DNA from: Candidatus Daviesbacteria bacterium RIFCSPLOWO2_01_FULL_39_23
GTDB lineage: Bacteria > Patescibacteriota > Microgenomatia > Daviesbacterales > UBA10151
NCBI GenBank assembly: GCA_001776935.1
Contig: MFDN01000005.1
Coordinates: forward strand, 2,505 to 66,504
Length of the DNA: 64,000 nucleotides
Reading direction: 5' to 3'
The notes below the pieces were generated by a model. That model did not search any database, was not told the origin of the DNA, and saw only the letters and a list, made by a program, of their open reading frames with translations. The translations under genes were made by a program, and so were the position numbers. Below are positions 559 to 40,437 of this stretch, piece after piece (positions within the stretch are counted from its first letter, which is position 1; each line of letters opens with the position of its first letter).

Positions 559-1257
559 CTATTTACCAAAATTACGCCTTTGCTCCTGATACCAGGCAAC
601 TGCTTTTTTAAGTTCACCCGCATCAAAATCCGGCCAAAGCGTTGTAGTGAAATAGAATTCCGAATAGGCTGTTTGCCAAAGCAGAAAATTGGAAAGCCTT
701 GACCTGCCTCCTGTCCGAATTACCAATTCAGGGTCATTTTGACCATTAGTATATAAATGTCTTTCCACAATAGTTTCATTAATTTTTTTCACCTCAATAC
801 CCTCTTTAACAATATCTTTGATCGCTTCAATCAGTTCCTTTTTCCCTCCATAATTTAAAGCAATATTTAATTTGATTGACTCATTTTTAATATATGTTTT
901 TCTGATTTGATCAATCAGTTTGGTGATAGTAGCCGGGAGTCCGTGCATTTCCCCTAAAATAGTGATCCTGACTCCTTTTTGCATCATTTTCTTAAGTCTT
1001 TTATGATAGCCCCTTCTAATCAAGCTGAACAGACTTAAAACTTCTCTTTTTGCCCGCTCTTTGATATTTTCAGTAGAAAGCGCATAAACCGTAACAGTTT
1101 CCACCCCTAATTTCTCAGCCGCTTCCACCACCTTTTCTAAGGTCTCTGAGCCTTTTTCGTGCCCTTTTATATCAGGCAAACCCTTCCCTCTTGCCCATCT
1201 CCTGTTTCCATCCATAATTATGGCGATATGTTGGGGGATATTTTGTTTACTAATCAT
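559..1257 (-). CDS. uppS: Isoprenyl transferase / undecaprenyl-diphosphate synthase
   Basis: 232 aa. HIAIIMDGNRRWA N-terminal motif. cis-prenyltransferase family throughout. Confidence 0.88.
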   Translation of the reverse strand: MISKQNIPQHIAIIMDGNRRWARGKGLPDIKGHEKGSETLEKVVEAAEKLGVETVTVYALSTENIKERAKREVLSLFSLIRRGYHKRLKKMMQKGVRITILGEMHGLPATITKLIDQIRKTYIKNESIKLNIALNYGGKKELIEAIKDIVKEGIEVKKINETIVERHLYTNGQNDPELVIRTGGRSRLSNFLLWQTAYSEFYFTTTLWPDFDAGELKKAVAWYQEQRRNFGK

Positions 1258-1359
1258 ATTTTTGCTATTAGCTTTTAGCTGTTAGCTATTTGCTGCTAAA
1301 AGCGAACAGCCTGCCCGCAATGCTACGCATAGCGTCGCAGGCGGGCCAATAGCGAATAG

Positions 1360-2211
1360 CTACTTAGTCCTTTCTACTAAATACTCTGCCATCTGCTGTA
1401 ATAATTTCCTCATTTTTATATCTTTAGTAATTTCCGGCAACATTTTCTTAGTTTGACTTATATATTTATCCGCTTCATTTTGTGCCGCAGTCATCCCTCC
1501 AATCCAACCCGCCTCATTGTCTAAAATATCATCCTTTATCTGAAAAGCAATCCCGATTTTTTCCCCAAATTTAGCCAAATGTTTCAACCATTGTTCGCCT
1601 GCCCCGGCCAAAGTTGCCCCCAAAACAAGCGGCCCGGAGACAGAATACTGCGCAGTCTTGTATTTAGCAACTACCAGGCTATCCCCTTTCTCCACATCCA
1701 GCATCTGTCCTATGGCAGTATTGAGCAGGATACCGGAGAGATATTTTAAAACTTCATTCTTCTTGCTATCCGGAAACCTGCTTTCCGCAATAATTCTTGT
1801 TGCCAGGAAAAACCCCCCGTCTCCAAGACAAATAGTCCGGGATATGCCTTTATGATCAGCCCCAAGAGCCTTATAGAGCGAAGGCTTGCCCCGCCTGACT
1901 TCACTCTGATCTATAACATCATCATGAGCCAAAAATGCGCTGTGAAATATTTCATAAGCTGCAGCAATTTTAATAATAGAGCTTTCAATCTGAGGACTGA
2001 TGACTGACGACTCCTTCCCTATCTCATATCCCAAAACCACTAACATCCCTCTAATCCTCTTTCCCCCGCGGCAACTGTCAATAAATTTATCAACCAATGG
2101 TAATAAACCATTGCTGATTACGCTAATTTCTGTTCTCCAGACAGCTAAAATCTTATTCAGCTCTTCATTAATCTTTGTAATATTTTTTTGGTAAAATTCC
2201 TCAAAATCCAT
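1360..2211 (-). CDS. Polyprenyl diphosphate synthase (FPP/GGPP synthase family)
   Basis: 283 aa. Two Asp-rich motifs (FLAHDDVID and FQIKDDILD) typical of trans-prenyltransferases. Contains an in-frame ctgatgactgacgac heptamer repeat. Confidence 0.85.
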   Translation of the reverse strand: MDFEEFYQKNITKINEELNKILAVWRTEISVISNGLLPLVDKFIDSCRGGKRIRGMLVVLGYEIGKESSVISPQIESSIIKIAAAYEIFHSAFLAHDDVIDQSEVRRGKPSLYKALGADHKGISRTICLGDGGFFLATRIIAESRFPDSKKNEVLKYLSGILLNTAIGQMLDVEKGDSLVVAKYKTAQYSVSGPLVLGATLAGAGEQWLKHLAKFGEKIGIAFQIKDDILDNEAGWIGGMTAAQNEADKYISQTKKMLPEITKDIKMRKLLQQMAEYLVERTK

Positions 2212-2240: not shown

Positions 2241-3437
2241 GTGGTAAAATCCAAGCTTATGCGCACTAAAATTAATCTTCGCGATTTTAACTCTGCCCAA
2301 AACAGGCGGGAATTTCTGGAAAAAGAACTGGATATTAGACTGGATAATATTGGCTGTTTCAGTTTTCCGGAAGATCAGGCTGTAGACAGAAACATCGAGA
2401 ACCTGATCGGAGCCACTCAAATCCCCTTGGGAGTTGCCGGACCATTATTGTTAGCGAAAAGCGAAAAGCGAAAAGCGAAAAGCTATTTTATTCCCCTTGC
2501 TACCACCGAAGGTGCCCTTGTAGCTTCGGTTTCCAGGGGATGCAAGGCAGTAAACGAGGCTGGCGGAGCAATGGTATTTGTGGAAAATACCGGGATTACG
2601 CGGGGCCCTGTTTTTAAAGCAGATAATTTAGAAAAATCCTTTAAAGCAAAAGCCTGGATCGAAAAAAATTTTAAAACCCTGGCCAAAGCAGCTGAAAGCA
2701 CTTCATCTCACCTGAAACTGCTTAAAGCAGAATACCAAATAACAGGCAGGAATTTATTTGTCAGGTTTTATTTTGATACTGCTGATGCCATGGGCATGAA
2801 TATGGCAACCATTGCCACTGGAGAAATGGTGAAAATAATTGAAAACAAAACAGGCGTCAAATGCATATCTTTATCAGGCAACTTTTGTATTGACAAAAAA
2901 CCTTCATATTTAAATTTTATTCTGGGAAGGGGCAAAAAGGTTTGGGCCGAAAGCATCTTACCTAAAAAGCTGGTTATTGATACTTTAAAAGTTACTCCTC
3001 AGGAAATTGCGGAAGTAGTTGAAAGAAAATGCCACATAGGCTCTATCATATCCGGATCTTTAGGCTACAACTCTCATTTCGCTAACATCGTTGCCGCTAT
3101 TTTTGCCGCCACCGGTCAGGACCTGGCTCATGTAGTAGAAGCAAGTATGGGAGTTACTTCAGCTGAGGTGCTGGAAAATGGGGACCTTTATTTTTCCATC
3201 TATCTCCCCTCTTTGGTAGTCGGCACTGTAGGAGGAGGCACGCATTTACCTACCCAGCAGGAAGCTTTAAAAATAATGCAGGTTTGTGATGTGCTAGAAT
3301 ATTCTCAAGTTGTCGGGGCAGCAGTATTGGCAGGCGAGCTTTCACTTTTGGCCTCACTAGCAGAAGGCTCGCTGATAAAAGCACATAGACAATTAGGAAG
3401 GAAGGAGCGAAGTCGCGAGTCAACCAAAGCAATTTGA
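2241..3437 (+). CDS. HMG-CoA reductase (class I-like)
   Basis: 398 aa. ENLIGxxQIPLGVAGPL and DAMGMN motifs. In-frame (agcgaaa)x4 repeat encoding AKSEKRKAKS at 2455-2486. Confidence 0.85.
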   Translation: MVKSKLMRTKINLRDFNSAQNRREFLEKELDIRLDNIGCFSFPEDQAVDRNIENLIGATQIPLGVAGPLLLAKSEKRKAKSYFIPLATTEGALVASVSRGCKAVNEAGGAMVFVENTGITRGPVFKADNLEKSFKAKAWIEKNFKTLAKAAESTSSHLKLLKAEYQITGRNLFVRFYFDTADAMGMNMATIATGEMVKIIENKTGVKCISLSGNFCIDKKPSYLNFILGRGKKVWAESILPKKLVIDTLKVTPQEIAEVVERKCHIGSIISGSLGYNSHFANIVAAIFAATGQDLAHVVEASMGVTSAEVLENGDLYFSIYLPSLVVGTVGGGTHLPTQQEALKIMQVCDVLEYSQVVGAAVLAGELSLLASLAEGSLIKAHRQLGRKERSRESTKAI

Positions 3438-3554
3438 GGATTTTGTGTGCAGTCCTACTTCACAAAATTCTCATATAGCAAGGCTAGAGAGAACTATCAT
3501 GTTGCAGTATTAACTAACCGAGCGGTGCTTTGTGACCGCGACGAGCGACCATCT

Positions 3555-4598
3555 ATGACTGGAATTGTTTCATACGGAGTTTACATACCAAAATACAGAA
3601 TAAAGCCCTCACAAGTGGCTCATGCCTGGGGCAAAGAAGTCAAAGGGGTAGAAAACTCTTTGGGAGTTTTTGAAAAAGCAGTAGCATCCGTAGATGAAGA
3701 TGCAGTAACTTTAGCAGTTGAGTCAAGTTTTAGAGCCTTAACAAACGGGCAAATTGAACCGGAAAAAATTGGCGCTATCACAATTGGTTCTGAATCACAC
3801 CCTTATGCTGTTAAACCCTCCTCTACCACAGTAGCCGGCATTTTAGGTATGCAGGGTGAATATCTGGCAGTTGATTTGGAATTTGCCTGTAAAGCCGGCA
3901 CTGCCGGAATACAACTCCTTTCCTCTTTGGTTGAAGCCAAAAAAGCCCAATATTGCCTGGCTATAGGTTCAGATGTGGCACAGGCCAAGCCTTCGGATGT
4001 TTTGGAATATACTGCCGGATCTGCTGCTGCAGCTTTTATCTTAGGCCGTGATAACTTGATTGCCGAGCTTTTAGATTTTACCTCTTATTCATCTGATACC
4101 CCTGATTTTTGGAGAAAAGACAACGAAAAATTCCCTTCCCATGCCGGCAGGTTTACCGGCGGTCCGGCTTATTTTGCCCATGTTGGCAAAGCCTCAGAGC
4201 TTATATTTGAAAAAACTAAAATGAAACCTTCTGATTTTGATTATGCTGTTTTTCATATGCCAAACGGAAAATTCCCCAAAGAGGCAGCCAGAAAATTAGG
4301 CTTCAGTGAACAACAGCTTAAACCAGGCTTTGTGGTACCTTTTATCGGTAACCCCTACTCTGCCTCATCAATGGTAGGACTTGCAGCTACTCTGGATATT
4401 GCCAAAAATGGTGATAAGATTTTTGTCTGTTCCTACGGCTCAGGAGCAGGTGCTGATGCTTTTGTTTTTGAAGTAACAAAAAATATTACCGCTCACCAGA
4501 CTAAAAACAAAGAAAGTGTGGCAAAACAGATTAAGAATAAACAATATATAGACTATTCATTGCTGGCTAAGAATATTATTAGCAAGTATAGGATTTAA
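3555..4598 (+). CDS. HMG-CoA synthase, archaeal type
   Basis: Starts MTGIVSYGVYIPKYRI. Thiolase-fold condensing enzyme. The ORF-track start at 3447 is a GTG inside a 150-bp interspersed repeat, so the ATG at 3555 is preferred. Confidence 0.8.
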   Translation: MTGIVSYGVYIPKYRIKPSQVAHAWGKEVKGVENSLGVFEKAVASVDEDAVTLAVESSFRALTNGQIEPEKIGAITIGSESHPYAVKPSSTTVAGILGMQGEYLAVDLEFACKAGTAGIQLLSSLVEAKKAQYCLAIGSDVAQAKPSDVLEYTAGSAAAAFILGRDNLIAELLDFTSYSSDTPDFWRKDNEKFPSHAGRFTGGPAYFAHVGKASELIFEKTKMKPSDFDYAVFHMPNGKFPKEAARKLGFSEQQLKPGFVVPFIGNPYSASSMVGLAATLDIAKNGDKIFVCSYGSGAGADAFVFEVTKNITAHQTKNKESVAKQIKNKQYIDYSLLAKNIISKYRI

Positions 4599-4742
4599 GA
4601 AGAGTCAAGAGACTAGCAACTAGAGTCAAGGAAAATAATACTTGACCCATTCGGCTTCGCCAAATCTGACTTGGCTTCGCTCAGGGTCATCCTGAGTATA
4701 GTCGAAGGATTGACTCTAGACTCTAGCGACTAGTCACTAATT

Positions 4743-5894
4743 ATGAAGATTAAAGTTTTAGGTACCGGTTTAACAAAATTTGGAGAGCTTTGGGACAAAT
4801 CACTTTTTGATTTGGCACAGGAGGCAGCTTTGGAAGCTATTGGCGATTCGCATTTAGCTGTTAACCAAATTGAAGCTGTCTTTGTGGCTAATATGTTATC
4901 CGGGAAATTATCCGGACAAGATCACCTGGGAGCAGTCGTAGCTTCTAATTTAGGCTTATCCGGCGCCTCTTTTAGAATAGAAGCAGCCTGCGCTTCCGGG
5001 GGCCTGGCAGTACACTTGGCCATCCAATCACTTCTTTCAGGCACTTATAAAAAGGTCCTGGTTGTGGGAGTGGAAAAAATGACTGATTCCCCTGCTTCAG
5101 AGATTACTTCTGCTTTAATGGGCGCTGGCTCGCAGACAGAAAGGCTGGCCGGCTTAACTTTTCCCGGCCTGTATGCTTTGATGGCCAAAGCCCATATGCA
5201 AAAATACGGCACCACCAAAAATGAACTGGCTCAGGTGGCTGTTAAAAACCACTATCATGCTTCTTTAAACGATAAAGCCCAATTTCCCTATGAAGTTACA
5301 GAAGAAAAGGTCCTGGAAAGTTCCTGTATCTGCACCCCTTTTACCCTGTTTGATGCCTCCCCTGTTTCAGACGGCGCAGGAGCTTTGGTTTTATCAGCAG
5401 ATGATGAACCTGGGAGCCTGCCGGCCGGCAGGCAGGTTTTCATCAGCGGGTCAGCTGTTGCAACCGACACCATTGACCTTGCCAACAGAAAATCATTGAC
5501 AGAAATTACAGCAACTCAAACAGCTTCTCAGAAAGCCTTAAAACAGGCAGGAGTGGAAATAAAAGATATTAAAGTGGCAGAAGTTCACGATTGCTTTACC
5601 ATCGCGGAAATTTTGGCCATGGAAGATTTGGGTTTTTGCCAAAAAGGCGAAGGAGGCAGGTTTATTGCCAAAGGCACCACTAAACTGGGAGGGAAATTAC
5701 CCGTAAACACCTCAGGAGGCTTAAAAGCCTGCGGTCATCCGGTGGGAGCTACCGGTGTTAAACAAATTGTAGAAATAACTAATCAATTAAGGGGAAATTT
5801 GGGCAAAAGGCAGGTCAAAGGAGCCAATGTCGGCCTAACTCAAAATGTGGGCGGAACAGGCGCAACAGTAGTAGTACATGTACTACAAAATTAA
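4743..5894 (+). CDS. Acetyl-CoA C-acetyltransferase (archaeal-type thiolase)
   Basis: 383 aa. Thiolase fold with catalytic Cys in the EAACASGG region. Sits next to HMG-CoA synthase and DUF35, as in archaeal mevalonate clusters. Confidence 0.8.
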   Translation: MKIKVLGTGLTKFGELWDKSLFDLAQEAALEAIGDSHLAVNQIEAVFVANMLSGKLSGQDHLGAVVASNLGLSGASFRIEAACASGGLAVHLAIQSLLSGTYKKVLVVGVEKMTDSPASEITSALMGAGSQTERLAGLTFPGLYALMAKAHMQKYGTTKNELAQVAVKNHYHASLNDKAQFPYEVTEEKVLESSCICTPFTLFDASPVSDGAGALVLSADDEPGSLPAGRQVFISGSAVATDTIDLANRKSLTEITATQTASQKALKQAGVEIKDIKVAEVHDCFTIAEILAMEDLGFCQKGEGGRFIAKGTTKLGGKLPVNTSGGLKACGHPVGATGVKQIVEITNQLRGNLGKRQVKGANVGLTQNVGGTGATVVVHVLQN

Positions 5895-5998
5895 CAATTT
5901 ACAATGTACAATTTACAATTGAATTCACAATCTATATTTTTGTTTTCTGCTTTGTACATTCTACATTTTACATTGTACATTGAAGGCAACGCCGACCT

Positions 5999-6298
5999 AT
6001 GAACAGCCCGGTACAAATTTGGAGATCGCATAAAAACTTACATAACTACCTTGGGAAACAAGGCAGGCTTTTGGTGTGGACTAAAATATTCATTGCCCCC
6101 TCCGGTTTTGAGCATCAAACTCCCTATATTGTTGGAATTGTAGAATTTGCTGACAAAGAAAAATTGCCTTTGCAGATTGTAGATTGCGAAGAAGAATCGT
6201 TAAAACCAAATCAAAAAGTTAAAGTAGTTATTAGAAAAATAGGCAAAGTAAAATCAGAAGATGTGATTGAATACGGGCTCAAAGCAAAACCTTTATGA
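5999..6298 (+). CDS. DUF35 OB-fold scaffold protein of the thiolase/HMG-CoA synthase complex
   Basis: 99 aa, OB-fold-like. Its stop overlaps the mvk start by 4 nt. Its position matches the archaeal thiolase-HMGCS-DUF35 trio. Confidence 0.55.
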   Translation: MNSPVQIWRSHKNLHNYLGKQGRLLVWTKIFIAPSGFEHQTPYIVGIVEFADKEKLPLQIVDCEEESLKPNQKVKVVIRKIGKVKSEDVIEYGLKAKPL

Positions 6299-7308
6299 AG
6301 ACCTCCGGCAGGACAATTACAGTTTCTGCCCCGGGAAAAATACACCTGCTTGGCGAACATTCTGTAGTATATGGGAAGCCTGCTTTGCTTACGGCTATAA
6401 ATCTCAGGACCAATGTCATCCTGACGGCAAAACCCGAAGGATCTCTCGCGAATGCAAGCTCCTCAGATGAACTGAGAGATTCTTCTCCGCCCACAGCTAC
6501 GCAGTTGCTGGCGGATCAGAATGACAAAATAAAGGCAATAATTGAACCTATCGTTAAAAAATATCTGAAAATAAAACAAATCCCGCCCTATAAATTGGAA
6601 ATTTCCTCAGAATTTCCTTTAGGAGCAGGGCTTGGCTCTTCTGCTGCCATATCTTCGGCATACATCGGCGCGCTCTTAACTTTTCTTAAAATTAAATGGG
6701 ACTTACACCTTATCAATAAACTTTCCTTTGAGGCTGAAAAAGCTTTTCATGGAAATCCTTCGGGCGCAGATAATGCCGCAGTAGTGTTTGGGGGCTTAAT
6801 CTGGTTTAGAAAAGAAACTACTGATTTAAAAATAATCCAACCGATTAACTCCCCTGTCCCTGCCAATATAGCTGGAAATTTTATACTGATTAACACCGGA
6901 AAACCAAAAGAAACTACCAAAGAAATGGTGGGATTAGTAAAATTAAGAGTCAAGAGTCAAGAGTCAAGAGTCAAGAAAATATTTGATCATCAGGAACAAT
7001 TAGTTAAAGAGCTTTTACTGACCATTCAATGCGGGAATGAAAAGGAATTAATCAAAATTATCAGGGCAGGAGAGAAAAACTTGGAAAAGATGGGTGTAGT
7101 TTCTTGGTATGTTCAATCTATTATCAGAAAAATAGAAAAAGCCGGAGGTGCTGCAAAAGTGTGCGGAGGAGGAGGAAAAACCAAAGCAACAGGTGTACTT
7201 TTGGCTTATCATCCGGAAAAATCAGTACTGGAAAAAATTGCAAAATCATATGATCTACCTTATTATACGGTTGTCTTGGGAGCCGAAGGCCTGCGAAAGG
7301 AAATATAA
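6295..7308 (+). CDS. mvk: Mevalonate kinase (GHMP kinase)
   Basis: N-terminal SAPGKIHLLGEHSVVYG and PLGAGLGSSAA GHMP motifs. Carries an in-frame MITE-like insertion (6414-6526) encoding ...SSPPTATQLLADQND..., and an (agagtca)x4 repeat. Confidence 0.8.
   Translation: MKTSGRTITVSAPGKIHLLGEHSVVYGKPALLTAINLRTNVILTAKPEGSLANASSSDELRDSSPPTATQLLADQNDKIKAIIEPIVKKYLKIKQIPPYKLEISSEFPLGAGLGSSAAISSAYIGALLTFLKIKWDLHLINKLSFEAEKAFHGNPSGADNAAVVFGGLIWFRKETTDLKIIQPINSPVPANIAGNFILINTGKPKETTKEMVGLVKLRVKSQESRVKKIFDHQEQLVKELLLTIQCGNEKELIKIIRAGEKNLEKMGVVSWYVQSIIRKIEKAGGAAKVCGGGGKTKATGVLLAYHPEKSVLEKIAKSYDLPYYTVVLGAEGLRKEI
6414..6526. mobile_element. MITE-like repeat (tgtcatYctga...tcaggatgaca family) inserted in-frame in mvk
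   Basis: Terminal motifs tgtcatcctgacg ... tcagaatgaca. Internal gccagcaactgcgtagctgtgggcggagaag is shared with the copies at 17271-17370 and 17685-17812. Confidence 0.7.
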
Positions 7309-7356
7309 CCACTTGATTGTACGATCGCACACTAAAATGATAAAAATGAAGCTAAA

Positions 7357-8358
7357 ATGAAAAGAGAAATAACAATATCAGCCCCCGGAAAATTAATGTT
7401 ACTTGGTGAACATGCTGTTGTTTATAACAGGCCCTGTATTGTTACAGCAGTCGGACAAAGAATGAGAGCTACAGTTGAGCTAACAGAGAAATCAACTTTC
7501 CAGCTTAATGCCCCGGATGTACAAATTGCAAATTATCAAAAGCCAATGGATCAATTAGGAATTGGCGATCTTCCCAAAGGAGCTAAATTTGTAGAAATTG
7601 CAGTGGTGAATTTCTTAAGGTCACTCCTTGAGTACTCAAGGAGTGACCTTGTAAAACCGGGAGTCAAGGTTTCTACGACCTCAGAATTTTCTTCCCAATT
7701 CGGTTTTGGCTCTTCCTCCGCCTCTACTGTTTGCGTAATTAAAGCCTTATCAGAAATTACAGAAGCAAATCTTAATAACAAAGAGATCTTTGATCTCGCG
7801 TACAAGACAGTGCTTGATATACAGGGCAAAGGTTCGGGATTTGATGCAGCAGCAGCCACCTTTGGAGGCACACTTTATTTTGTAACCGGAGGAAAAACAA
7901 TTGAACCTTTAAACATTGACTCCCTTCCTTTAATAGTTGGTTACAGCGGCATTAAAGCAGATACTGTCACCTTAATAAATCAGGTAAAAGAAAAAGCCGG
8001 GGGAAACCCCCAAGCTGTAGAAGATATTTATGACAATATTGGCAAGCTGGTAGAACAAGCCAAACTCGCTCTTTTGGGTAAAGATTGGCAAAGCTTAGGT
8101 GAGCTTATGAATGAAAACCAAAAACTACTAACCAAACTTGGAGTAAGCATAAACAAGCTTGATGATATGATTGCTGCCGCCCTTAAAGCAGGGGCATATG
8201 GGGCAAAGCTGTCCGGCGCCGGCGGCGGAGACTGTATGATAGCTTTAGCGCCGGAGGATAAGGTGCAAGCCGTCAAAGATGGAATAACCTCTGTCGGCGG
8301 CCAGATAATTGAGGTAGAAACGAATGCAGAAGGAGCTAGAATAGAGACGAGGGACTAG
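7357..8358 (+). CDS. GHMP kinase, probable phosphomevalonate kinase
   Basis: ISAPGKLMLLGEHAVVY and GFGSSSA motifs. Lies between mvk and mvd. Contains a perfect 34-bp palindrome in-frame (7617-7650). Confidence 0.65.
   Translation: MKREITISAPGKLMLLGEHAVVYNRPCIVTAVGQRMRATVELTEKSTFQLNAPDVQIANYQKPMDQLGIGDLPKGAKFVEIAVVNFLRSLLEYSRSDLVKPGVKVSTTSEFSSQFGFGSSSASTVCVIKALSEITEANLNNKEIFDLAYKTVLDIQGKGSGFDAAAATFGGTLYFVTGGKTIEPLNIDSLPLIVGYSGIKADTVTLINQVKEKAGGNPQAVEDIYDNIGKLVEQAKLALLGKDWQSLGELMNENQKLLTKLGVSINKLDDMIAAALKAGAYGAKLSGAGGGDCMIALAPEDKVQAVKDGITSVGGQIIEVETNAEGARIETRD
7617..7650. repeat. Perfect 34-bp palindrome within a coding region
   Basis: aaggtcactccttgagtactcaaggagtgacctt equals its own reverse complement. 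Encodes LRSLLEYSRSDLV in-frame, and the same peptide appears in the antisense ORF. Confidence 0.9.
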
Positions 8359-8373
8359 AGTCAAGAGACAAGT

Positions 8374-8730
8374 ATGAGAAACAACAACGGCTACAGAAAT
8401 TTAATCGCTTGGCAAAAAAGTAATCTACTAGCCCATTTTATTTATGATTTAACTGCAAAATTCCCCAAGGATGAGCTTTTTGGAATGACTTCACAAATGC
8501 GTCGCGCAGCTCTATCAGTTTGTGCTAATATTGCAGAGGGTTATAGCCGAAGAGGCTTAAAGGATAGAAGACATTTCTATCAAATGGCAATGGGATCTTT
8601 AACGGAACTGGAATTTTTTATTGATTTTGCTTATGAAAGAAAATTTATTAGTCATGTTGATTATGAGAAAATATTAGAGATACATATGGAAACAGCTCGA
8701 GTTTTAAGCGGCTTGTTAAAATCCACTTGA
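8374..8730 (+). CDS. Four-helix-bundle protein (23S rRNA IVS protein family, Avd-like), second copy
   Basis: 118 aa with QMRRAALSVCANIAEGYSR. Paralog of 183..548. Flanked by gagtcaag-family inverted repeats. Inserted between the PMK-like kinase and mvd. Confidence 0.75.
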   Translation: MRNNNGYRNLIAWQKSNLLAHFIYDLTAKFPKDELFGMTSQMRRAALSVCANIAEGYSRRGLKDRRHFYQMAMGSLTELEFFIDFAYERKFISHVDYEKILEIHMETARVLSGLLKST

Positions 8731-8758
8731 CTCTAGACTCTAGCGACTAGTCACTACT

Positions 8759-9739
8759 ATGAAAGCAACAGCCATTGCGCCGTCAAACATTGCTTTTACA
8801 AAATATTGGGGCCGCAAGGATGAAACCTTAAGATTGCCTGAAAATGGCAGCATTTGTATGTGTTTAAGCAATCTCCTGACCACTACTACTGTAGAATTTT
8901 CCCAAGGCTACCAGCAAGATGAAGTTACCATCAACGGAGGGGGGCTTGAGGCGGGTGAAGCTAAGCGGATTATCAAACATCTGGATAGAATCAGAAAACC
9001 GGCTGGCATTGACCGGAAAGCCAAAGTGGTATCAAATAATAATTTTCCCACTGGTACAGGTCTTTCTTCATCTGCTTCCGGTTTTGCCGCTTTAACTCTT
9101 GCTGCCAGCAAAGCCGCTGGTTTAGAGCTATCCGAGAAAGAATTATCAATACTGGCCCGCCAGGGCTCCGGCTCAGCTTGCAGATCTATCCCTTCAGGGT
9201 TTGTGGAATGGTTGGATGGAGACACCTCTGAGACTTCCTACGCTATCCAAATCTTCCCTCCTGGCCATTGGGCTATCATAGACATAGTGGCAGTTGTCTC
9301 AGAAGGAAAAAAAGAAGTTCCAACTTCGCAAGGAATGCAAAAAACACATTCTTCTCCATTTATGGCTGTCAGACTTTCCAAAATGAAAGAAAAAAATGAA
9401 AAAGTCAAAAAACTTATCAAAGAAAAAAATTTCAAAGAATTTGGGGAATTACTGGAACAGGAAGCCTTAGAACTTCACACCATTATGCTCACTCAAATTC
9501 CTCCGCTTATTTATTGGACTCCCGGGACTTTAAGGATAATGAAATTAACACCCTTTTGGAGACAGGAAGGAATACCTGTTTATTTTACCATCAATACCGG
9601 ACAGGATATTCACTTAATTTGTGAGTCAAAAAATGTTGAAAAAGTTAAATCCAAATTATCAGGGCTGGATTTTGTCAAAGATATTATTGTTAATGCTCCC
9701 GGAGAAGGCGCCAGACTTTCAAAAACCCACCTTTTTTAA
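8759..9739 (+). CDS. mvd: Diphosphomevalonate decarboxylase
   Basis: 326 aa. AFTKYWGRKDETLRLPENGSICM N-terminus and GTGLSSSASGFAAL GHMP motif. Confidence 0.8.
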   Translation: MKATAIAPSNIAFTKYWGRKDETLRLPENGSICMCLSNLLTTTTVEFSQGYQQDEVTINGGGLEAGEAKRIIKHLDRIRKPAGIDRKAKVVSNNNFPTGTGLSSSASGFAALTLAASKAAGLELSEKELSILARQGSGSACRSIPSGFVEWLDGDTSETSYAIQIFPPGHWAIIDIVAVVSEGKKEVPTSQGMQKTHSSPFMAVRLSKMKEKNEKVKKLIKEKNFKEFGELLEQEALELHTIMLTQIPPLIYWTPGTLRIMKLTPFWRQEGIPVYFTINTGQDIHLICESKNVEKVKSKLSGLDFVKDIIVNAPGEGARLSKTHLF

Positions 9740-13440: not shown

Positions 13441-13592
13441 AAAAGCGAGTCGCGAGTCTATCAAAGCAATCTGAAGATTTTATGTGCAGATAATCATCAT
13501 AAAATCTCCACATAGCGAGGCTAGAGAATATTGTAAATGTTACAGATATTACTAGCCGAGCGGTGCTTTGTGACCGCGACGAGCGATCATTA
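13441..13592. repeat. About 150-bp interspersed repeat (copy 2; copy 1 at 3403-3554)
   Basis: High identity to 3403-3554 (gcgagtcgcgagtc...catagcRaggctagaga...ccgagcggtgctttgtgaccgcgacgagcga). Contains the gcggt-gctttgtg-accgc hairpin. Confidence 0.8.
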
Positions 13593-15692: not shown

Positions 15693-15830
15693 TGCGAGGG
15701 GTGGCAGCGAAGAGGGGATCCCGGCGCGTAGCCGGAAGAGCGAAGCGATCGAGGATGCACGACGGGAAGCCGAGCTGACAGGACCCCGAGCACATACTGT
15801 TAATGGTTTTGCGCACCGACGAGCCGCAAA
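15693..15830. repeat. GC-rich interspersed element (intergenic copy)
   Basis: cgaggggtggcagcgaagaggggatcccggcgcgtagccgg...gaggatgcacgacgg...ccgagctgacaggaccccgagc. Homologous to 43501-43642 inside polA. Roughly 60% GC in an AT-rich background. Confidence 0.7.
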
Positions 15831-15834
15831 AAAG

Positions 15835-17673
15835 CTACTTCTTGTATTGCTGCTTATACATCTCTATTAACTCTTTCACAGTTGTTGCATCCTCAGCTTT
15901 TTTGTCCGCTTCCCTAAATTGAACAAGTCTTGGAAATCTCAAAGCATAGCCGGGTTCTGTCTCTGTTTTTCCTGCAGTATGCACCGGCGAACGGGTTATT
16001 TCATCAGCCAATACCTCTATAACAAGTCTTGGCTCCACCCAAACACTGGGAATGATTAAAGAATTCACCCTGGCCGGCTTACTTTTTACTTTTAACTTTT
16101 GACTTTTTACTTCAATACCCCTCCACTCCTCATCAGAGAGTCCTGTGCCGATTTTAGAAACTGTCACAAATTCGTCTTTTTTATCATCATAAACTCCCAC
16201 CAAAAGCGACCCTGCCCCAAATCCCGATCTTTTGCCTTTACCAAAAATATATCCCAAAATTACACAATCTATAGTATCTTTTAATTCCCCTGAAGAATGC
16301 CTTTTTAGTTTAACCCAGTTAAAATTCCTGGCTCCTGCTTCATATTTTGAGTCAGGTCTTTTAACCACCAATCCCTCAAGCCCCAAAGATATTGCCTCAT
16401 CCAAAAGATCCTGCAATCTTTGCGCTTCACTCACCATCTCCCCTTCTTCCACTACTAAAGTGTCTCCATCTGCCACTACAGCTTTTAGCTCTTTTAATCT
16501 TTCAGTAAGCGGTAAATCAATTAAAGATATCCCATCTTTATATAAGATATCAAAACAAAAAGCCCTCAGAGGAATCTTTTTTGTCATTTCTGCGATTCCA
16601 TACTTTCTGCGTCTTTGTGTAGTCTCCTGAAAAGGCAAAAACTCATCCGAAGCAGGGTTATAGCCTATGGCTTCACAATCCAAGATGGCTGATTTTGCTT
16701 TAATTTGTTTTATTGCCCCTTCGGCAATTTCCGGAAACATCGGGGTAGTTTCTTCCAGGTTTCTCGAAAACAATCTTACTGTCTGATGACTGACAGCTGA
16801 CGACTGACGTCTATCTATGTGTATTTGTACCCTAAAACCATCCAATTTTCTTTGGGCATTTACTTCTCCCAGCTTTTCAATTACTGTCTTGCCGGAAGGT
16901 AATCTTTCAGCAAGCTGCGACCGAATCGGCCTGCCTACTTGTATTTCCAGCTTTTCTACAGCTTCCAATCCGCCCTGCCATAAAGTTTCTCCAATTAAGC
17001 CTAAATCAGATACCCTGTTATAGCCTCCCTCTAAAAGTTTACGCTTTGACCTGTCCCCCAGCTTTAATTTGGCAAAAGCATCCAAAATAGTCGGGTCTCC
17101 GATCCCTAAACGGGAAACTCCCAAAGGAATCCTGACTAAATGCTTTGCAGACACCGCATCCATTTGTTTTAATAGTCCTACCAAAAGTTGTTGTTTTTTC
17201 TCTACAGTTCCCTCCCCTGTTGTTTTGGCAATCTGAGTTAGAATATGAAACACCTGACTTACGTTTAATTTGTCATTCCGATCCGCCAGCAACTGCGTAG
17301 CTGTGGGCGGAGAAGAATCTCTAGATTTACTTTTTGAATCTTGAGATCCTTCGCTACGCTCAGGATGACACTTTATATCACTAAGTTGCTGGACTACTAA
17401 TCCCAAATCCCCTACTTTTCCATATTCTTTTAAAACTTCTTCCCTCCCGATGCCGTAGGCTTTGGCAATACTTGCAGCCACTGTTTTTTCTGCCATCCCC
17501 ATTTCCAAAGGTTCATAAAACGGAGCAACTCTGCCTTGAATTAAATAGGAAACTTTGCCAATTTCTTCTGTTTTAATTTCTCTAAACAACTCGGTTAAAA
17601 TATCAATCAATAAAAGCCTTGAGGAAGTTGCTTCTAGTTTTTCAAAATATTCTGCTAGTTTAGAAAATAACAT
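15835..17673 (-). CDS. ATP-dependent DNA ligase (archaeal/eukaryotic type)
   Basis: MLFSKLAEYFEKLEATSSR N-terminus, KLDGFR adenylation motif, and EGLVVK and OB-domain motifs. The track start at 17739 is a GTG inside a MITE, so the ATG at 17673 is preferred. Two in-frame repeat insertions. Confidence 0.85.
   Translation of the reverse strand: MLFSKLAEYFEKLEATSSRLLLIDILTELFREIKTEEIGKVSYLIQGRVAPFYEPLEMGMAEKTVAASIAKAYGIGREEVLKEYGKVGDLGLVVQQLSDIKCHPERSEGSQDSKSKSRDSSPPTATQLLADRNDKLNVSQVFHILTQIAKTTGEGTVEKKQQLLVGLLKQMDAVSAKHLVRIPLGVSRLGIGDPTILDAFAKLKLGDRSKRKLLEGGYNRVSDLGLIGETLWQGGLEAVEKLEIQVGRPIRSQLAERLPSGKTVIEKLGEVNAQRKLDGFRVQIHIDRRQSSAVSHQTVRLFSRNLEETTPMFPEIAEGAIKQIKAKSAILDCEAIGYNPASDEFLPFQETTQRRRKYGIAEMTKKIPLRAFCFDILYKDGISLIDLPLTERLKELKAVVADGDTLVVEEGEMVSEAQRLQDLLDEAISLGLEGLVVKRPDSKYEAGARNFNWVKLKRHSSGELKDTIDCVILGYIFGKGKRSGFGAGSLLVGVYDDKKDEFVTVSKIGTGLSDEEWRGIEVKSQKLKVKSKPARVNSLIIPSVWVEPRLVIEVLADEITRSPVHTAGKTETEPGYALRFPRLVQFREADKKAEDATTVKELIEMYKQQYKK
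17271..17370. mobile_element. MITE-like repeat inserted in-frame in the DNA ligase gene
   Basis: tgtcattccgatccgccagcaactgcgtagctgtgggcggagaagaatctctagat...gagatccttcgctacgctcaggatgaca. Encodes ...SRDSSPPTATQLLADRNDK... Confidence 0.75.
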
Positions 17674-21152: not shown

Positions 21153-24100
21153 CTAGTTTCCGACATACTCATCCCAACTTTTAATTTGTAGATCTTCTAC
21201 TTTTTTGCTAGCCAGGCTGGTTATTAAAAGCTCTGCTGCCTGCAGGTTAGTTATCAAAGGAATACCCAAATCCACACAATTCCTTCTTAAAATAAATCCG
21301 TCAGTTTCGCCTTTTTCCACCCCTCCCTCAGATATATTTATCACAAGATCAATCCCCTCGTTTAGAAGACTTAGCACAGAAGGTTCTCTTTTTTCTGCAA
21401 TTTTATAGATTCTGGTATTTTCAATGCCATGACTTTTTAGAAACTCTGAAGTATGGTGGGTGGCATATATTTTTAAACCTAAATTAATAAGCTGTTTTGC
21501 AGAAAGCAGCAAATCAAGTTTATTTTTATCCCCTCCCAAAGACAGCAATACTCCTTTTTTGGGTATTTTAAACCCAACAGCCAAAATGGCTTTAAGATAA
21601 GCCTCCTGCAGGTCATCCCCAAAACAAGCCACCTCCCCTGTTGAGGACATTTCCACCCGGAGTCTCGGATCCGCTCCTTTAATCCGGGAAAAAGAAAACT
21701 GCGGAGCTTTAACTCCCACATAATCTAAATCTATGGTCTTAAATCCATTGGTAAGTTTTTCTCCCATCATAACTTTTGTGGCCAATTCCACAAAGTTATA
21801 TCCTGTTACTTTGGAGACAAAAGGGAAAGACCTGGAAGCCCGGAGGTTTAATTCAATCACCTGTATTTTATTGTCTTTTGCCAAAAATTGAATATTGAAA
21901 GGGCCATTGATATTTAAAGCCTGAATAATCTTTTTGGTGGCCTCTTTTACCTTCCTGACAGTCTCAAGATAAAGCCTTTGAGGCGGCAAAACAATGGTGG
22001 CATCACCTGAGTGTACGCCGGCATTTTCCACATGTTCTGAGATGGCATAAATCAAAAGTTCCCCGCTTTGCCCTACTCCGTCAACTTCAATTTCTTTCGC
22101 CCCTTCTACAAACTTGGAAATTACCACCGGATGTTCGGGAGAAATATCCGAGGCGCTTTTTAAGTGCTTGGTTAGCTCAATAGAAGAATATGCCACATTC
22201 ATGGCAGAACCGGATAACACATAAGACGGCCTGACTAAAACCGGGTAACCGATTTTCTTGGCAAATGTTAAAGCCTCATCTACTCCTTTTAAGCTCTGCC
22301 ATCCCGGCTGTTCTATTCCTAGTGTGTCTAAAAGCTTAGAAAACTTATTACGGTCTTCTGCCCGGTCAATATTTTCAGGGGAAGTTCCCAGTATTTTATA
22401 ACCGGCCTTAAAACAAGCGATTGCCAAATTGTTGGGTACCTGTCCCCCAAAACTTAAAACAAGGTTGGCATTTTCTTCAATATCATAAATGTCACTAACT
22501 CGCTCAAAGGTCAGCTGTTCAAAATACAATTTATCCGCGCTGTCAAAATCTGTAGAAACTGTTTCCGGATTACAATTTATAATAATTGTTTCTAACCCTT
22601 TTTCCCTTAATGTTTTGGCTGCTGTTACACAGCACCAATCAAATTCCACAGAAGAACCAATCCTGTAAGGGCCGGAGCCAAGGACAATTGCTTTTTCGCT
22701 TTTCGCTATTAGCTTTTCGCTGTTAGCTTCTGATTCTTCTCCATGATATGTCAGATATAAATAATTTGTTTTAGCCGGGAATTCTCCTGCTAAAGTATCA
22801 ATATGTTTTACAACCGGTACTATGCCATGTTTCTTTCTGAATTCTCTAACTTTTTCTTGGGTGGTTTTAAATGCTTTAGCCAGTACTTTATCTGAAAAAC
22901 CTAATCTTTTTGCATCAAGAACGCTTTTCGCTGTTAACCCGCCTGCGACGCTATGCGTAGCATTGCGGGCAGGCTGTTGGCTTTTAGCTGCTAATGGCGA
23001 ATGGCCAATAGCTAATAGCTTTTTCTCAAACTCCACCATCTCTTTTATCTGATACAAAAACCATGGATCAATCCCTGTGGCCTGATAAATATCTTCTACT
23101 GATTCACCTTTACTAAGCCTTTTGGCAATGGCAAAAAGCCGCTCTGTGGTGGGCAAAAGCTGTGTATCATCTGTACCGTTTTCTAAAAGCCCATCCTGCC
23201 CTGTTTCAAGCATCCTGATGGCTTTTTGCAACACTTCCGGAAAAGATCTGCCTATTGCCATCACCTCTCCCACGCTTTTCATCTCCGAACCGATCGCTTC
23301 TTTTGCTCCCGCAAACTTTTGCAAATCCCACCTTGGAAGCTTAATCACAATATAATCCAAAGCCGGCTCAAAAAAGGCTGAAGTCGATAAAGTAACTCTA
23401 TTTTTAAGCTGCGGCAGATTGTAACCCAAGGCAATTTTGGCAGCAATATAAGCCAAAGGATAACCTGTGGCTTTAGAGGCTAAAGCTGAAGAACGCGACA
23501 ACCTGGCATTAACCTCTATCACCCGGTAATCATTATTCTCCGGATTTAGGGCAAATTGGATATTGCACTCCCCTACAATCCCCAAATACTCAATCACTTG
23601 TAGAGATAACTTGCGTAAAAAATGATACTGGTAATTATTTAAAGTTTGCGAAGGAGCTACCACAATACTCTCACCGGTATGAATCCCCAAAGGATCCATA
23701 TTTTCCATATTACAAACAGTGATTTTATTACCCTTATTATCCCGGACCACTTCATACTCCACCTCTTTCCAATGTTTTAAATATTCTTCAATAGCAATCT
23801 GCGGAGCCTGACTCAAAGCACTGGTGACCATTTTAATAAATTCCTCCTTACTTTCAACTACTCCTGAACCTAAACCTCCTAAAGAAAAACCGGATCGTAT
23901 AAGAAGCGGATACTCTAACTTCTCAGCAATTTCCAGAGCCTGATTCAAACTTTTGGCAAAACCGCCGACGGGAACTTTGACGCCAATTTTTGCAAGTTCC
24001 CCGGCAAAAAGCTCCCGGTCTTCCGTAATTTCTATACTTTTTACAGGAGTACCTAAAACCTTAACGCCATACTTTTTAAAAATCCCGTTCTTTTCCAAAG

Positions 24101-24383
24101 CCAAACCGCAATTTAAGGCAGTCTGCCCGCCAAAACTTAAAAGTATCGCATCGGGTTTTTCCTTTTTTATCACTTTTTCAACAAATAATGGAGTTACCGG
24201 TAAAAAATAAATCTTACGCGCAAGCTCTTTGGAGGTTTGAATAGTGGCAATATTAGGGTTTATTAAAACCGATTCAATGCCTTCTTCTTTTAGGGCTTTT
24301 AAAGCTTGCGAGCCTGAATAATCAAACTCGCCTGCTTCCCCGATTTTTAATGCTCCTGAACCTAAAACTAGTACTTTTTTCAT
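21153..24383 (-). CDS. carB: Carbamoyl-phosphate synthase large subunit
   Basis: 1076 aa with two ATP-grasp halves and an MGS-like C-terminal domain. In-frame repeat insertions at about 22680-22735 and 22920-23035 (encoding ...GHSPLAAKSQQPARNATHSVAGGLTA...). Confidence 0.95.
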   Translation of the reverse strand: MKKVLVLGSGALKIGEAGEFDYSGSQALKALKEEGIESVLINPNIATIQTSKELARKIYFLPVTPLFVEKVIKKEKPDAILLSFGGQTALNCGLALEKNGIFKKYGVKVLGTPVKSIEITEDRELFAGELAKIGVKVPVGGFAKSLNQALEIAEKLEYPLLIRSGFSLGGLGSGVVESKEEFIKMVTSALSQAPQIAIEEYLKHWKEVEYEVVRDNKGNKITVCNMENMDPLGIHTGESIVVAPSQTLNNYQYHFLRKLSLQVIEYLGIVGECNIQFALNPENNDYRVIEVNARLSRSSALASKATGYPLAYIAAKIALGYNLPQLKNRVTLSTSAFFEPALDYIVIKLPRWDLQKFAGAKEAIGSEMKSVGEVMAIGRSFPEVLQKAIRMLETGQDGLLENGTDDTQLLPTTERLFAIAKRLSKGESVEDIYQATGIDPWFLYQIKEMVEFEKKLLAIGHSPLAAKSQQPARNATHSVAGGLTAKSVLDAKRLGFSDKVLAKAFKTTQEKVREFRKKHGIVPVVKHIDTLAGEFPAKTNYLYLTYHGEESEANSEKLIAKSEKAIVLGSGPYRIGSSVEFDWCCVTAAKTLREKGLETIIINCNPETVSTDFDSADKLYFEQLTFERVSDIYDIEENANLVLSFGGQVPNNLAIACFKAGYKILGTSPENIDRAEDRNKFSKLLDTLGIEQPGWQSLKGVDEALTFAKKIGYPVLVRPSYVLSGSAMNVAYSSIELTKHLKSASDISPEHPVVISKFVEGAKEIEVDGVGQSGELLIYAISEHVENAGVHSGDATIVLPPQRLYLETVRKVKEATKKIIQALNINGPFNIQFLAKDNKIQVIELNLRASRSFPFVSKVTGYNFVELATKVMMGEKLTNGFKTIDLDYVGVKAPQFSFSRIKGADPRLRVEMSSTGEVACFGDDLQEAYLKAILAVGFKIPKKGVLLSLGGDKNKLDLLLSAKQLINLGLKIYATHHTSEFLKSHGIENTRIYKIAEKREPSVLSLLNEGIDLVINISEGGVEKGETDGFILRRNCVDLGIPLITNLQAAELLITSLASKKVEDLQIKSWDEYVGN

Positions 24384-24394: not shown

Positions 24395-24477
24395 TGTCAT
24401 TCTGAGCGTAGCGAAGAATCTCTTGACTTGTTCAAGGTTCCAAACTAGATCCTTCGGCTAATCGCCTCAGGATGACA
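24395..24477. mobile_element. MITE-like repeat filling the carA-carB intergenic region
   Basis: tgtcattctgagcgtagcgaagaatctc...gatccttcggctaatcgcctcaggatgaca. Abuts the carA stop codon and ends 11 nt from the carB start. Confidence 0.75.
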
Positions 24478-34893: not shown

Positions 34894-34895
34894 GC

Positions 34896-39293: not shown

Positions 39294-40437
39294 AATGATT
39301 TTTTACCAATTCTAAAATCTCTTTTTTGAATCTTTCTTTGGAAAACTTTTCAGCATTTTTTATACAGTCTTCCGGATCCCATCCAGAGGATGGTCCGCCT
39401 TGGGCGGAAAATTTTTGTAAAGCTTCCATTAAATCATCTGCTGTTGCTACACCAGGACCTCCATATAAAACGCCTGTTTTACCATCAATAACAGTTTCCA
39501 AAAAACCCCCTGAGGCAGGCGCTATTACCGGCGTACCAACAGCTTGTGCCTCAATTGAGGTAATCCCAAAATCCTCATCTTCTGCCGCGACTATCAGGGC
39601 TTTGGCATTTTGCAAAAGTTGAATTCTTTCTTCATCGCTCACCCATCCCAGAAATTCAGTGCTTTTAGCTTTTAGCTTTTCACTATTAGCTTTTAGCTCA
39701 TCTAATTGCGGACCTGTGCCAGCCACCTTAAGCGGCAAGCCCAACTTTCCGCAAGCCTCCACTACCACCTCCACTCCTTTCCCTCTTACCAGTCTACTCA
39801 ATACCAAAAAATAGCTTTTCGCTGCTAATGGCGAATGGCCAACAGCGAATAGCTCTAAATCCACTGGCGGGTAAATCACCACACTATCTCTTCTGTAGAA
39901 CTTTTTAATCCTTGCGGCGATATTTTTGGAATTGGCTATTAAAATATCCGGCCGCTGGGAAACTTCAAAATCATAAATCCGCATAAAATGATTAATAATC
40001 TCCCCACTTATTCTGGTCCACCAGTGTTTTTTGTAATTAAAGCTTGTGACGTAACCATACAAAAATCTGGGAGGGGTATGAATGTAACTTAAATGCAGAG
40101 TTTCGGGCTTGGTGATAACAGCTTTAGCTAAGTGAGTAGCAGATGAAGATGAAATCACCAAGTCGTATTCTGACAAATCAAAGCTTTCAAACATCATCGG
40201 TCCAAAAATCCGGAAAGGAGAAAGTAACCGGTTGGCAAAAGGAAATTTCTGAAACCAGGAAGTTCTAATGTCCCAACCTGCAAATCTTTTTCCATTTTCT
40301 CCCAGTTTCTCAGGATTATAATAAGCAGTAAAAAGGGGTGCCTGGGGAAAAATTTCATGCAAAACCTCCAAGACTCTTTCTGCTCCGCCGTACTCCCTTA
40401 AATAATCATGCACTAAAGCAACTTTTAAATTTTTCAT
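39280..40437 (-). CDS. Glycosyltransferase family 4
   Basis: GT-B fold with C-terminal E-x7-E region (EDFGITSIEAQAVGTPVIA). In-frame heptamer insertions encoding GHSPLAAKS and ELKANSEKLKAKS. Confidence 0.75.
   Translation of the reverse strand: MKNLKVALVHDYLREYGGAERVLEVLHEIFPQAPLFTAYYNPEKLGENGKRFAGWDIRTSWFQKFPFANRLLSPFRIFGPMMFESFDLSEYDLVISSSSATHLAKAVITKPETLHLSYIHTPPRFLYGYVTSFNYKKHWWTRISGEIINHFMRIYDFEVSQRPDILIANSKNIAARIKKFYRRDSVVIYPPVDLELFAVGHSPLAAKSYFLVLSRLVRGKGVEVVVEACGKLGLPLKVAGTGPQLDELKANSEKLKAKSTEFLGWVSDEERIQLLQNAKALIVAAEDEDFGITSIEAQAVGTPVIAPASGGFLETVIDGKTGVLYGGPGVATADDLMEALQKFSAQGGPSSGWDPEDCIKNAEKFSKERFKKEILELVKNHYGKS

Follow-up and report, generated by a model that had tools for sequence, protein, structure and literature searches.

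A 64,000-nt stretch of contig MFDN01000005.1 from Candidatus Daviesbacteria bacterium RIFCSPLOWO2_01_FULL_39_23 (the whole stretch that was analysed, hereafter the window) contains two copies of a 36-nt imperfect palindrome, here called element E. One copy lies in the spacer between uppS and a polyprenyl synthetase gene, and the other lies in frame inside carB, which encodes the large subunit of carbamoyl-phosphate synthase. We consider it probable that E is a selfish, non-autonomous, protein-coding palindrome, akin to the repetitive extragenic palindromic (REP) elements and the Rickettsia palindromic elements (RPEs), and that it is tolerated within genes where it is translated as a harmless loop. 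E is unusual in its size, in its identity across phyla and in its use of a single reading frame.

Two inverted copies of E in the window

The window contains an inverted repeat with arms at 1264-1360 and 22923-23019 (97 nt, 87% complementary). Pairwise alignment of the two loci gave a 41-nt identical centre, AACAGCCTGCCCGCAATGCTACGCATAGCGTCGCAGGCGGG, with diverged AGCNNTT/AANNGCT heptamers on either side. A sequence-only reading of this DNA had described a composite repeat with a palindromic core shared, in reverse orientation, by the uppS/prenyl synthase spacer and an in-frame insert in carB. Both loci were recovered where it had placed them, and the CarB translation at the insert, ...LLAIGHSPLAAKSQQPARNATHSVAGGLTAKS... 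(in parts, KLLAIGHSPLAAKSQQ-PARNATHSVAGG-LTAKS), matched the peptide that it had given. Its term "composite" was right in that the two loci share both core and heptamer flanks, but the composite is not one unit. Core and heptamers are two independent, nested repeat families, since E was found in at least 119 contigs with unrelated flanks and the heptamer module was copied without the core in a glycosyltransferase gene.

An exact pattern match to the 36-nt core returned only two sites in the window, the spacer copy on the minus strand and the carB copy on the plus strand (Table 1). No third copy was found in the window at up to 11 mismatches, and the chance expectation was zero in 100 shuffles, even at 3 mismatches. 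Each window copy differs from the metagenome consensus at one of the 36 positions. E and its flanks fill the whole 102-nt spacer (1258-1359) from the polyprenyl synthetase stop codon (1360-1362), which is abutted by two heptamer units, to the uppS start codon (1255-1257), which is abutted by a longer heptamer array. On its minus strand, carB reads the complement of E as CCT GCC CGC AAT GCT ACG CAT AGC GTC GCA GGC GGG, that is, as PARNATHSVAGG, CarB residues 471-482. Tandem Repeats Finder (TRF) reported period-7 arrays at 1259-1295 (period 7/14), 22693-22729 and 22990-23020, with dozens more elsewhere in the window.

E is conserved to its exact ends in unrelated contexts

Metagenome contigs were scanned with a degenerate 26-mer, and the matches listed span many dozens of datasets. 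The consensus, CCCGCCTGCAACGCTATGCGTAGCATTGCGGGCAGG, is a 36-nt imperfect palindrome with sharp boundaries. Among the matches listed there were 116 unique contexts, in which all 36 positions were 92-100% conserved (92-99% at the ten positions left free by the pattern) and conservation dropped abruptly at both ends of E. In the same set, the GC content of the hosts ranged from 0.34 to 0.65, and about two-thirds of the copies lay outside long open reading frames (ORFs). Named hosts include Patescibacteria and Kiritimatiellota, and the copy number was two in the window and usually one per recovered contig. Both window copies have G at position 10, as does one Paceibacterota copy; a scan of genome contigs with this G10 variant returned that Paceibacterota contig (L001) only.

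In 860 kb of collected DNA, 92 copies had no mismatch to the consensus, 18 had one, 6 had two and 14 had three to nine. This distribution resembles that left by a recently active master sequence, with the counts biased towards intact copies because the contigs had been pulled out by a pattern search. In one contig, L037, two inverted copies of E lie within a 124-nt inverted repeat (1336-1459 and 7677-7800, 95% complementary) around 6.2 kb. A composite transposon was rejected there, as the enclosed genes are for TPR, methyltransferase, P-type ATPase and ABC/FtsX proteins, with none for a transposase; the pair may instead be an inverted duplication.

A short sequence that recurs unchanged in many unrelated metagenome assemblies looks like a contaminant at first sight, and the shared core could in principle be an adaptor, a spike-in or an assembly chimera. 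We assign almost no probability to such an artefact, as the carB insert was identical in an independent European Nucleotide Archive (ENA) assembly and an E insertion in bipA was identical in two independent Joint Genome Institute (JGI) samples. Moreover, in-gene copies are phase-selected (see below), and variants and decayed copies exist. E was not found in 28 Gb of E. coli genomes, PLSDB plasmids, GenBank phages or IMG/VR, which argues against an adaptor or vector; the zero matches in the last three also speak against a plasmid or phage vector for the spread across phyla. Full-text literature searches gave no match to the DNA strings of E or to its four peptide strings, and searches on the candidate phyla radiation (CPR) or Patescibacteria together with palindromic repeats, MITEs (miniature transposable elements with inverted repeats) or in-frame repeats yielded no description of E.

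The carB copy lies in a variable, probably permissive loop

The relatives of the window CarB place its host among Candidatus Daviesbacteria (Patescibacteria/CPR). Across 120 aligned CarB orthologs from Daviesbacteria/Patescibacteria, the stretch between ...EFEKxL and ...AKKLGFSDK proved hypervariable, with a usual length of 8-10 residues. PARNATHSVAGG occurred in the window protein only, so the core is not a segment conserved in orthologs from genomes that lack the repeat, and the idea of an insert is upheld. DNA comparison with two close orthologs (L002 and L003, 81-82% identity) revealed the heptamer module (CTATTGG CCATTTG CCATTAG CAGCTAA AAGCCAA ...) at the same loop, with no E. When exactly 36 nt were excised from the window carB, the translation became KSQQ/LTAKS (the slash marks the junction), which aligned with KSQK/LTANS of the ortholog. 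The three CarB proteins are roughly equidistant (80-85% identity), and because they are about equally distant from one another, a single gain of the core is simpler than repeated losses. From these alignments, the carB segment is best read as an insertion in two layers, of which the heptamer module would be the older and E the later.

The composite lengthens CarB by about 19-24 residues. Structure alignment against E. coli CarB (1BXR) placed it in a 19-residue gap between T482 and G483, and alignment against human CPS1 placed it in the equivalent gap. In the E. coli protein this site belongs to the oligomerisation domain (residues 404-553). In an AlphaFold2 model of CarB built with 60 orthologs (predicted template modelling score, pTM, 0.83), residues 461-481 were modelled as coil with a predicted local distance difference test (pLDDT) score below 50 (about 35 for the insert), and this low-confidence loop was bracketed by helices 440-461 and 485-493. 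A second heptamer stretch, at residues 550-560, also had pLDDT below 50. The model thus points to a surface loop or linker that the fold tolerates, in the manner of RPE insertion sites.

Other Daviesbacteria have acquired different sequences at this loop. CHS...RMT inserts were seen in the protein alignment at the same place in P0013, P0014, P0016, P0030, P0054 and P0103, and for the L124 CarB a different hairpin repeat was confirmed in the DNA (TGTCATTCTGAG...CTCAGGATGACA / TTGTCATTCTGAGGCGAAGCCGAAGAAT...CTCAGGATGACAA). As these relatives carry a different hairpin repeat there, the loop is a recurrent landing site.

Copies inside genes are read almost always in one frame

A copy was counted as in-gene when, after in silico deletion of E, an ORF extended at least 60 codons on each side and at least 200 in total. 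Twenty copies in long ORFs qualified. Seventeen of them had the orientation and phase that read PARNATHSVAGG, one of six possible states; two were in the opposite orientation at phase 0, one was in another open phase and none was in a stop phase. Pfam searches identified ten hosts as genuine housekeeping proteins. Nine of these have E in the PARNATHSVAGG frame, namely alanyl-tRNA synthetase (AlaRS), CTP synthase, BipA/TypA, tRNA-guanine transglycosylase, thymidylate kinase and four others, the remaining hosts in this frame being ornithine carbamoyltransferase, class-III aminotransferase, agmatine deiminase and ribosomal protein L10. In a pseudouridine synthase, the last of the ten, E has the opposite orientation.

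In BipA and PBP2, the insertions are exactly 12 amino acids long, and orthologs of 593 and 601 amino acids lack them with no other change. The nearest named relatives of these two E-bearing proteins are from Kiritimatiellia/Kiritimatiellota and Verrucomicrobiota. If E is translated, the junction peptides expected would include SQQPARNATHSVAGGLTAK in CarB and EELPARNATHSVAGGPEG in BipA. At the exact site where the PBP2 of contig L081 has PARNATHSVAGG, a 79% identical, Kiritimatiellota-like ortholog (P0255) has NAMQSSAGK, which resembles a decayed copy of E in the opposite orientation (NAMRSIAGR). This likeness points to repeated insertion at a single site or to the later divergence of an old copy.

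Copies between co-directional genes showed no such bias, with 13 in one orientation and 12 in the other. Given this even split, insertion is probably neutral with respect to orientation, and the bias inside genes would reflect selection on the translated product. Avoidance of mRNA structure was rejected as its cause, because the favoured sense strand forms the more stable hairpin (-23.5 vs -19.5 kcal/mol). Removal as an intron, a bypass element or an intein was likewise rejected. A sequence that is removed should be tolerated in any phase, stop-containing ones included, but 17 of 20 copies were in one open phase and none was in a stop phase, which speaks against its removal from either RNA or protein. 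Taken together, the reading frames point to a translation filter inside genes, through which E nearly always passes as PARNATHSVAGG.

Could the insert be an adaptive protein module, with PARNATHSVAGG and the heptamer-coded LLAIGHSPLAAKS serving as a linker, a tag or an interaction site? In favour of this, one frame dominates; PARNATHSVAGG holds the motif N-X-T, with Pro and Gly-Gly as its caps, and the heptamer module is in the same frame in the window CarB, GT4, Fpg and PolA. However, purifying selection on a random inserter would give the same frame bias, about two-thirds of copies lie outside genes, the host proteins have no function in common, close orthologs do without the insert, and the segment is predicted to be disordered. 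We therefore regard an adaptive module as very improbable.

Insertion sites and rival explanations

At 111 of the 116 sites no direct repeat abutted E, a proportion equal to that in shuffled controls, and the few abutting repeats stem from tandem-repeat contexts; a target-site duplication was accordingly rejected. The flanks show a weak, asymmetric and significant preference, with Y Y N S before E and T (rarely A) after it (p 1e-3 to 6e-10 per position). Other features of the sites were tried and set aside. The -1/+1 bases do not extend the hairpin by a further pair, as they show no covariation. Insertion is not aimed at hairpin-prone DNA, since the joined flanks without E have a mean folding energy of -5.09 kcal/mol against -5.16 for random sites (p = 0.9). 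Two flanks looked tRNA-like by eye, but ARAGORN found no tRNA spanning a junction after deletion of E; it reported one tRNA 13 nt from an E junction. Several copies are nested in the loop of a GTCATTCCCGC...GCGGGAATCC hairpin, and about 8% of copies adjoin heptamer arrays, as compared with 2% of random positions.

The window copies are among those beside heptamer arrays, which raises the possibility that gene conversion or homologous recombination between similar arrays gave rise to the carB copy, with the core carried along passively. Both copies sit at the same heptamer register and share G10, they agree at 17 of 19 nt on the left side of E and at 11 of 15 nt on its right side, and near-identical heptamer modules (93%) in unlinked genes suggest exchange or copying among arrays. 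Against this, the homology tracts are short, with about 80% identity as against 100% in the core, such arrays lie beside only about 8% of copies, and among the matches listed E has exact boundaries and unrelated flanks in 116 other contexts, from which it follows that E moves without flanking homology. Such an exchange would explain the intragenomic step only, and we hold it to be a minor possibility.

Alternatively, selection could maintain E as a functional nucleic acid, such as a DNA hairpin bound by a protein, an attenuator or a signal for RNA processing or stability. The intergenic copy would then act on uppS expression, with the carB copy as a by-product. Conservation is extreme in unrelated hosts and extends to the transition asymmetries fixed within the palindrome, E forms a stable hairpin as RNA (-19 to -23.5 kcal/mol), and the intergenic copy fills an entire intercistronic spacer. 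In addition, the apex GCGTAGC is common to four palindromic families in the window, where 10 of the 13 GCGTAGC/GCTACGC sites are palindrome apexes. Nevertheless, the intergenic copies have no preferred orientation, no T-tract and no terminator call, and they are commoner between divergent genes (10) than between convergent ones (2). No Rfam family was found, the best match being CRISPR-DR20 with broken pairs at 16.5 bits against a threshold of 42 bits; host genes and their neighbours are unrelated, and the copy number is low. A functional RNA or DNA role for E is thus unlikely, and we give little credence to this explanation of the two window copies.

Under the explanation that we favour, a selfish palindrome tolerated as a translated loop, E would have inserted precisely at a codon boundary into an older heptamer module in this Daviesbacteria lineage. 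By then the module would already have been in place in a permissive surface loop, within the oligomerisation domain of CarB. Its sibling, with the same one-base variant of E, would have settled in the same kind of heptamer array in the spacer upstream of uppS. The carB copy would simply be translated, its 12 codons with no stop in frame giving the hydrophilic, Pro/Gly-capped PARNATHSVAGG, and this peptide would lengthen a disordered loop and be tolerated. Insertion itself would be blind to orientation and phase, purifying selection would remove in-gene copies in the other five states, and the mobilising activity would be supplied in trans. A mechanism of the HUH/tyrosine-transposase type, acting on a single-strand hairpin, would agree with the missing duplication and with the weak, asymmetric preference at the target (5'-YYNS^E^T).

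Several observations weigh against this explanation. The two window copies lie in similar heptamer contexts at the same register, which for this pair would also fit gene conversion. The opposite phase-0 frame encodes PACNAMRSIAGR, a peptide fairly similar to PARNATHSVAGG, and the 17:2 excess over that frame is stronger than a simple argument from hydrophobicity predicts. That E is nearly identical in Patescibacteria and in Kiritimatiellota is difficult to reconcile with a purely neutral parasite, unless it spread recently or the mobilising machinery strongly constrains its sequence. Pfam searches of about 50 ORFs in the window, 64 kb of the genome, found no transposase, REP-associated tyrosine transposase (RAYT)/Y1 or TnpB, and the current mobility of E is something that we infer. 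A single 36-nt hairpin is, to our knowledge, smaller than any unit known to transpose, and REP singlets are generally held to be immobile without a partner.

A bolder proposal is that E, a single hairpin of 36 bp, spreads horizontally and would be the smallest mobile DNA known to do so. Its sequence would be kept almost unchanged in at least two unrelated bacterial phyla through recognition in trans, by an activity that many hosts share and that may be a housekeeping enzyme. E would also have evolved compatibility with translation in one frame, by which it persists in essential genes and seeds new loops. We put this forward tentatively and consider it doubtful. If a dedicated or universal mobilising mechanism were shown, E would be considerably more interesting. 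The question that it poses is what moves a single 36-bp hairpin between distant lineages.

Heptamer arrays and other repeats in the window

The features around the two copies of E are collected in Table 1. The intergenic heptamer array is about 80% similar to the carB module, as compared with 93% for the copy in the GT4 glycosyltransferase gene. Further in-frame heptamer arrays lie at 25104-25176, 33061-33131, 32981-33013, 42411-42473, 4835-4867, 2446-2488, 1981-2017 and 39660-39706, and the genes that translate such arrays encode CarA, Fpg (twice), PolA, thiolase, 3-hydroxy-3-methylglutaryl coenzyme A (HMG-CoA) reductase, polyprenyl synthetase and the GT4 glycosyltransferase. In-frame loops derived from repeats appear to be a genome-wide habit of this organism.

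Table 1. Positions of element E, its heptamer flanks and the surrounding genes in the window
Feature	Position	Strand	Basis or remark
E, intergenic copy	1310..1345	consensus 'F' strand CCCGCCTGCGACGCTATGCGTAGCATTGCGGGCAGG on minus	exact pattern match
Heptamer array flanking intergenic E, TTTTAGC/AGCNNTT units changing to AANAGCN	1259..1309	.	sequence, TRF
Two heptamer units, CCAATAG CGAATAG, on the other flank of intergenic E	1346..1359	.	sequence, alignment to carB copy
uppS, undecaprenyl diphosphate synthase, downstream of intergenic E	559..1257	-	Pfam PF01255, E-value 2e-76
Polyprenyl synthetase gene, upstream of intergenic E	1360..2211	-	Pfam PF00348, E-value 8e-41
E inside carB	22938..22973	+ (F strand)	exact match, translation
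Heptamer module encoding K-LLAIGHSPLAAKSQQ, CarB residues 455-470	22974..23020	-	TRF, translation
Heptamer units encoding LTAKS, CarB residues 483-487	22923..22937	-	alignment, translation
carB, carbamoyl-phosphate synthase large subunit, 1076 aa, host gene of E	21153..24383	-	structure alignments, AlphaFold2 model
Second heptamer array in carB, linker before the second ATP-grasp half, ...EANSEKLIAKSEKAIV...	22683..22743	-	TRF, translation
Sister heptamer module without E, in frame in GT4 glycosyltransferase gene, read LFAVGHSPLAAKS	39814..39854	-	93% identical to carB module

Other palindromes in the window also occur in frame. A second hairpin family, TGTCATTCTGAGCGTAGCGAAGAATCTC, is present at 24395-24423, 37214-37242 and 17343-17370, two copies being intergenic and one in frame in the DNA ligase gene (CHPERSEGSQ); its relatives lie at the same CarB loop in other Daviesbacteria (CHS...RMT in proteins, L124 at the DNA level). 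A third palindrome, 'D4' (TGTCATTCYGATCCGCCAGCAACTGCGTAGCTGTGGGCGGAGAAGAAT), is found at 6473-6538, 17259-17322 and 17685-17738, in frame once in the mevalonate kinase gene and twice in that for ATP-dependent DNA ligase, and is always read ...SSPPTATQLLAD(Q/R)ND.... The inner core of D4 aligns with E at 26 of 30 positions, so that D4 looks like an E-like core nested in a GTCATTC hairpin. The GCGTAGC apex, together with the likeness of D4 to E, hints at a shared recognition feature; C-GNA-G triloops form unusually stable DNA mini-hairpins. A GC-rich palindromic pair (15694-15766 and 43569-43641) has one intergenic copy and one in frame in the gene for DNA polymerase I, where it is read ARGGSEEGSRRVAAVSETNEDARRG between the 5'-3' exonuclease and polymerase domains. 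Finally, a 54-nt direct repeat, ATGTTGCAGTATTAACTAACCGAGCGGTGCTTTGTGACCGCGACGAGCGACCAT (87%), occurs at 3499-3552 and 13537-13590, one copy at the start of an HMG-CoA synthase-like gene and the other in a spacer.

Other genes in the window

Next to uppS and the polyprenyl synthetase gene, this CPR genome has a mevalonate-pathway cluster (2241-9739) that encodes HMG-CoA reductase, an HMG-CoA synthase-like protein, thiolase, two GHMP kinases and diphosphomevalonate decarboxylase. Two small genes for '23S rRNA intervening sequence' proteins (PF05635, bAvd-like; 183-548 and 8359-8730) are bracketed by heptamer arrays (151-184 and 526-560; 8335-8372 and 8726-8768), and one of them interrupts the mevalonate cluster; these genes may be mobile cassettes linked to heptamer repeats. 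Directly downstream of carB, in the window as in the independent contig L123, lies a PaaX/Cas2-like gene (20078-20581), which has a 188-nt stretch of 80% identity in common with a paralog at 34375-34926. The FtsH gene (50800-53943) contains an intein with a LAGLIDADG homing-endonuclease domain inside the AAA domain.

Significance and comparison with known systems

In-frame palindromes in housekeeping genes are best known from Rickettsia and from scattered REP cases, and can now be added for CPR bacteria, with their streamlined genomes, and for Kiritimatiellota. E offers a natural experiment on loops that tolerate insertion, in CarB, AlaRS, CTP synthase, BipA, PBP2 and ribosomal protein L10. 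In practical terms, E makes it possible to recognise a repeat origin for unexplained 12-residue inserts and for PARNATHSVAGG-like peptides in metagenome-derived proteins.

Similar to the RPEs, E occurs both between genes and in frame in unrelated conserved genes, with its peptide where the fold tolerates it. According to the summaries in PMC10969869 and PMC3733652, RPEs (Ogata et al. 2000, 2002) lie between genes and in frame in functional housekeeping genes and are seen as selfish DNA, and PMC10969869 gives the first-described ones as about 150 bp and confined to Rickettsia. Unlike these, E is 36 bp, low in copy number and near-identical in Patescibacteria and Kiritimatiellota, the comparison being one of size and host range, not of sequence.

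Some REP copies are intragenic, with DNA repair enzymes, tRNA synthetases and pseudouridine synthases among the products of their host genes, and certain families are shared by distant species (Di Nocera et al. 2013, PMC3733652). E is likewise an imperfect GC-rich palindrome in the range of 20-40 bp (16 pairing positions, two transition mismatches and two wobbles per strand), and its host list is similar to that of the intragenic GTAG/CGTC-tagged REPs. It differs from REPs in having no unpaired terminal GTAG/CGTC tag, as it ends in CCCGCC... and ...GGCAGG and has GTAG at the apex (GCGTAGC) only. Moreover, many REPs form dimers or clusters, whereas copies of E are single and apparently few per genome, with no RAYT gene among the window ORFs.

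The RAYT hypothesis is cited in PMC3733652. E is like the IS200/IS605 and RAYT systems, which transpose as single strands, in having no target-site duplication and in forming a hairpin. Its weak asymmetric preference beside one end may correspond to the short specific target sequence next to which IS200/IS605-derived hairpin elements insert. Systems of the IS200/IS605 type depend on a left end and a right end that differ, and on a Y1 transposase that is either encoded or linked. Unlike IS200/IS605 derivatives of the PATE-like kind, E has one hairpin instead of two subterminal ones and no linked enzyme in the window. It also differs from MITEs, which are about 70-300 bp with terminal inverted repeats and a target-site duplication, in being 36 bp with no duplication in 111 of 116 cases. 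Unlike CRISPR repeats, which stand in regularly spaced arrays, copies of E are solitary, and the Rfam match to CRISPR-DR20 mentioned above was below threshold.

The mobile GC clusters of yeast mitochondria, which are organellar and eukaryotic, are GC-rich palindromes of about 30-50 bp that enter protein-coding genes, and the 'byp' elements derived from them are skipped by the ribosome. E resembles the GC clusters as a very short palindrome in coding genes, but the phase filter indicates that E, unlike byp, is translated. Cyanobacterial short tandemly repeated repetitive (STRR) heptanucleotide sequences are mainly intergenic. The TAACTGA heptanucleotide repeats of Beggiatoaceae are described as intergenic in PMC4679880. 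The flanks of E are comparable to both as 7-nt-period tandem arrays that are abundant in the window, but many of the window arrays are in frame in genes and form inverted half-arrays. E lacks the REP tag, the size and duplication of a MITE and the two ends of an IS200/IS605 element, and by function it is a protein-coding palindrome.

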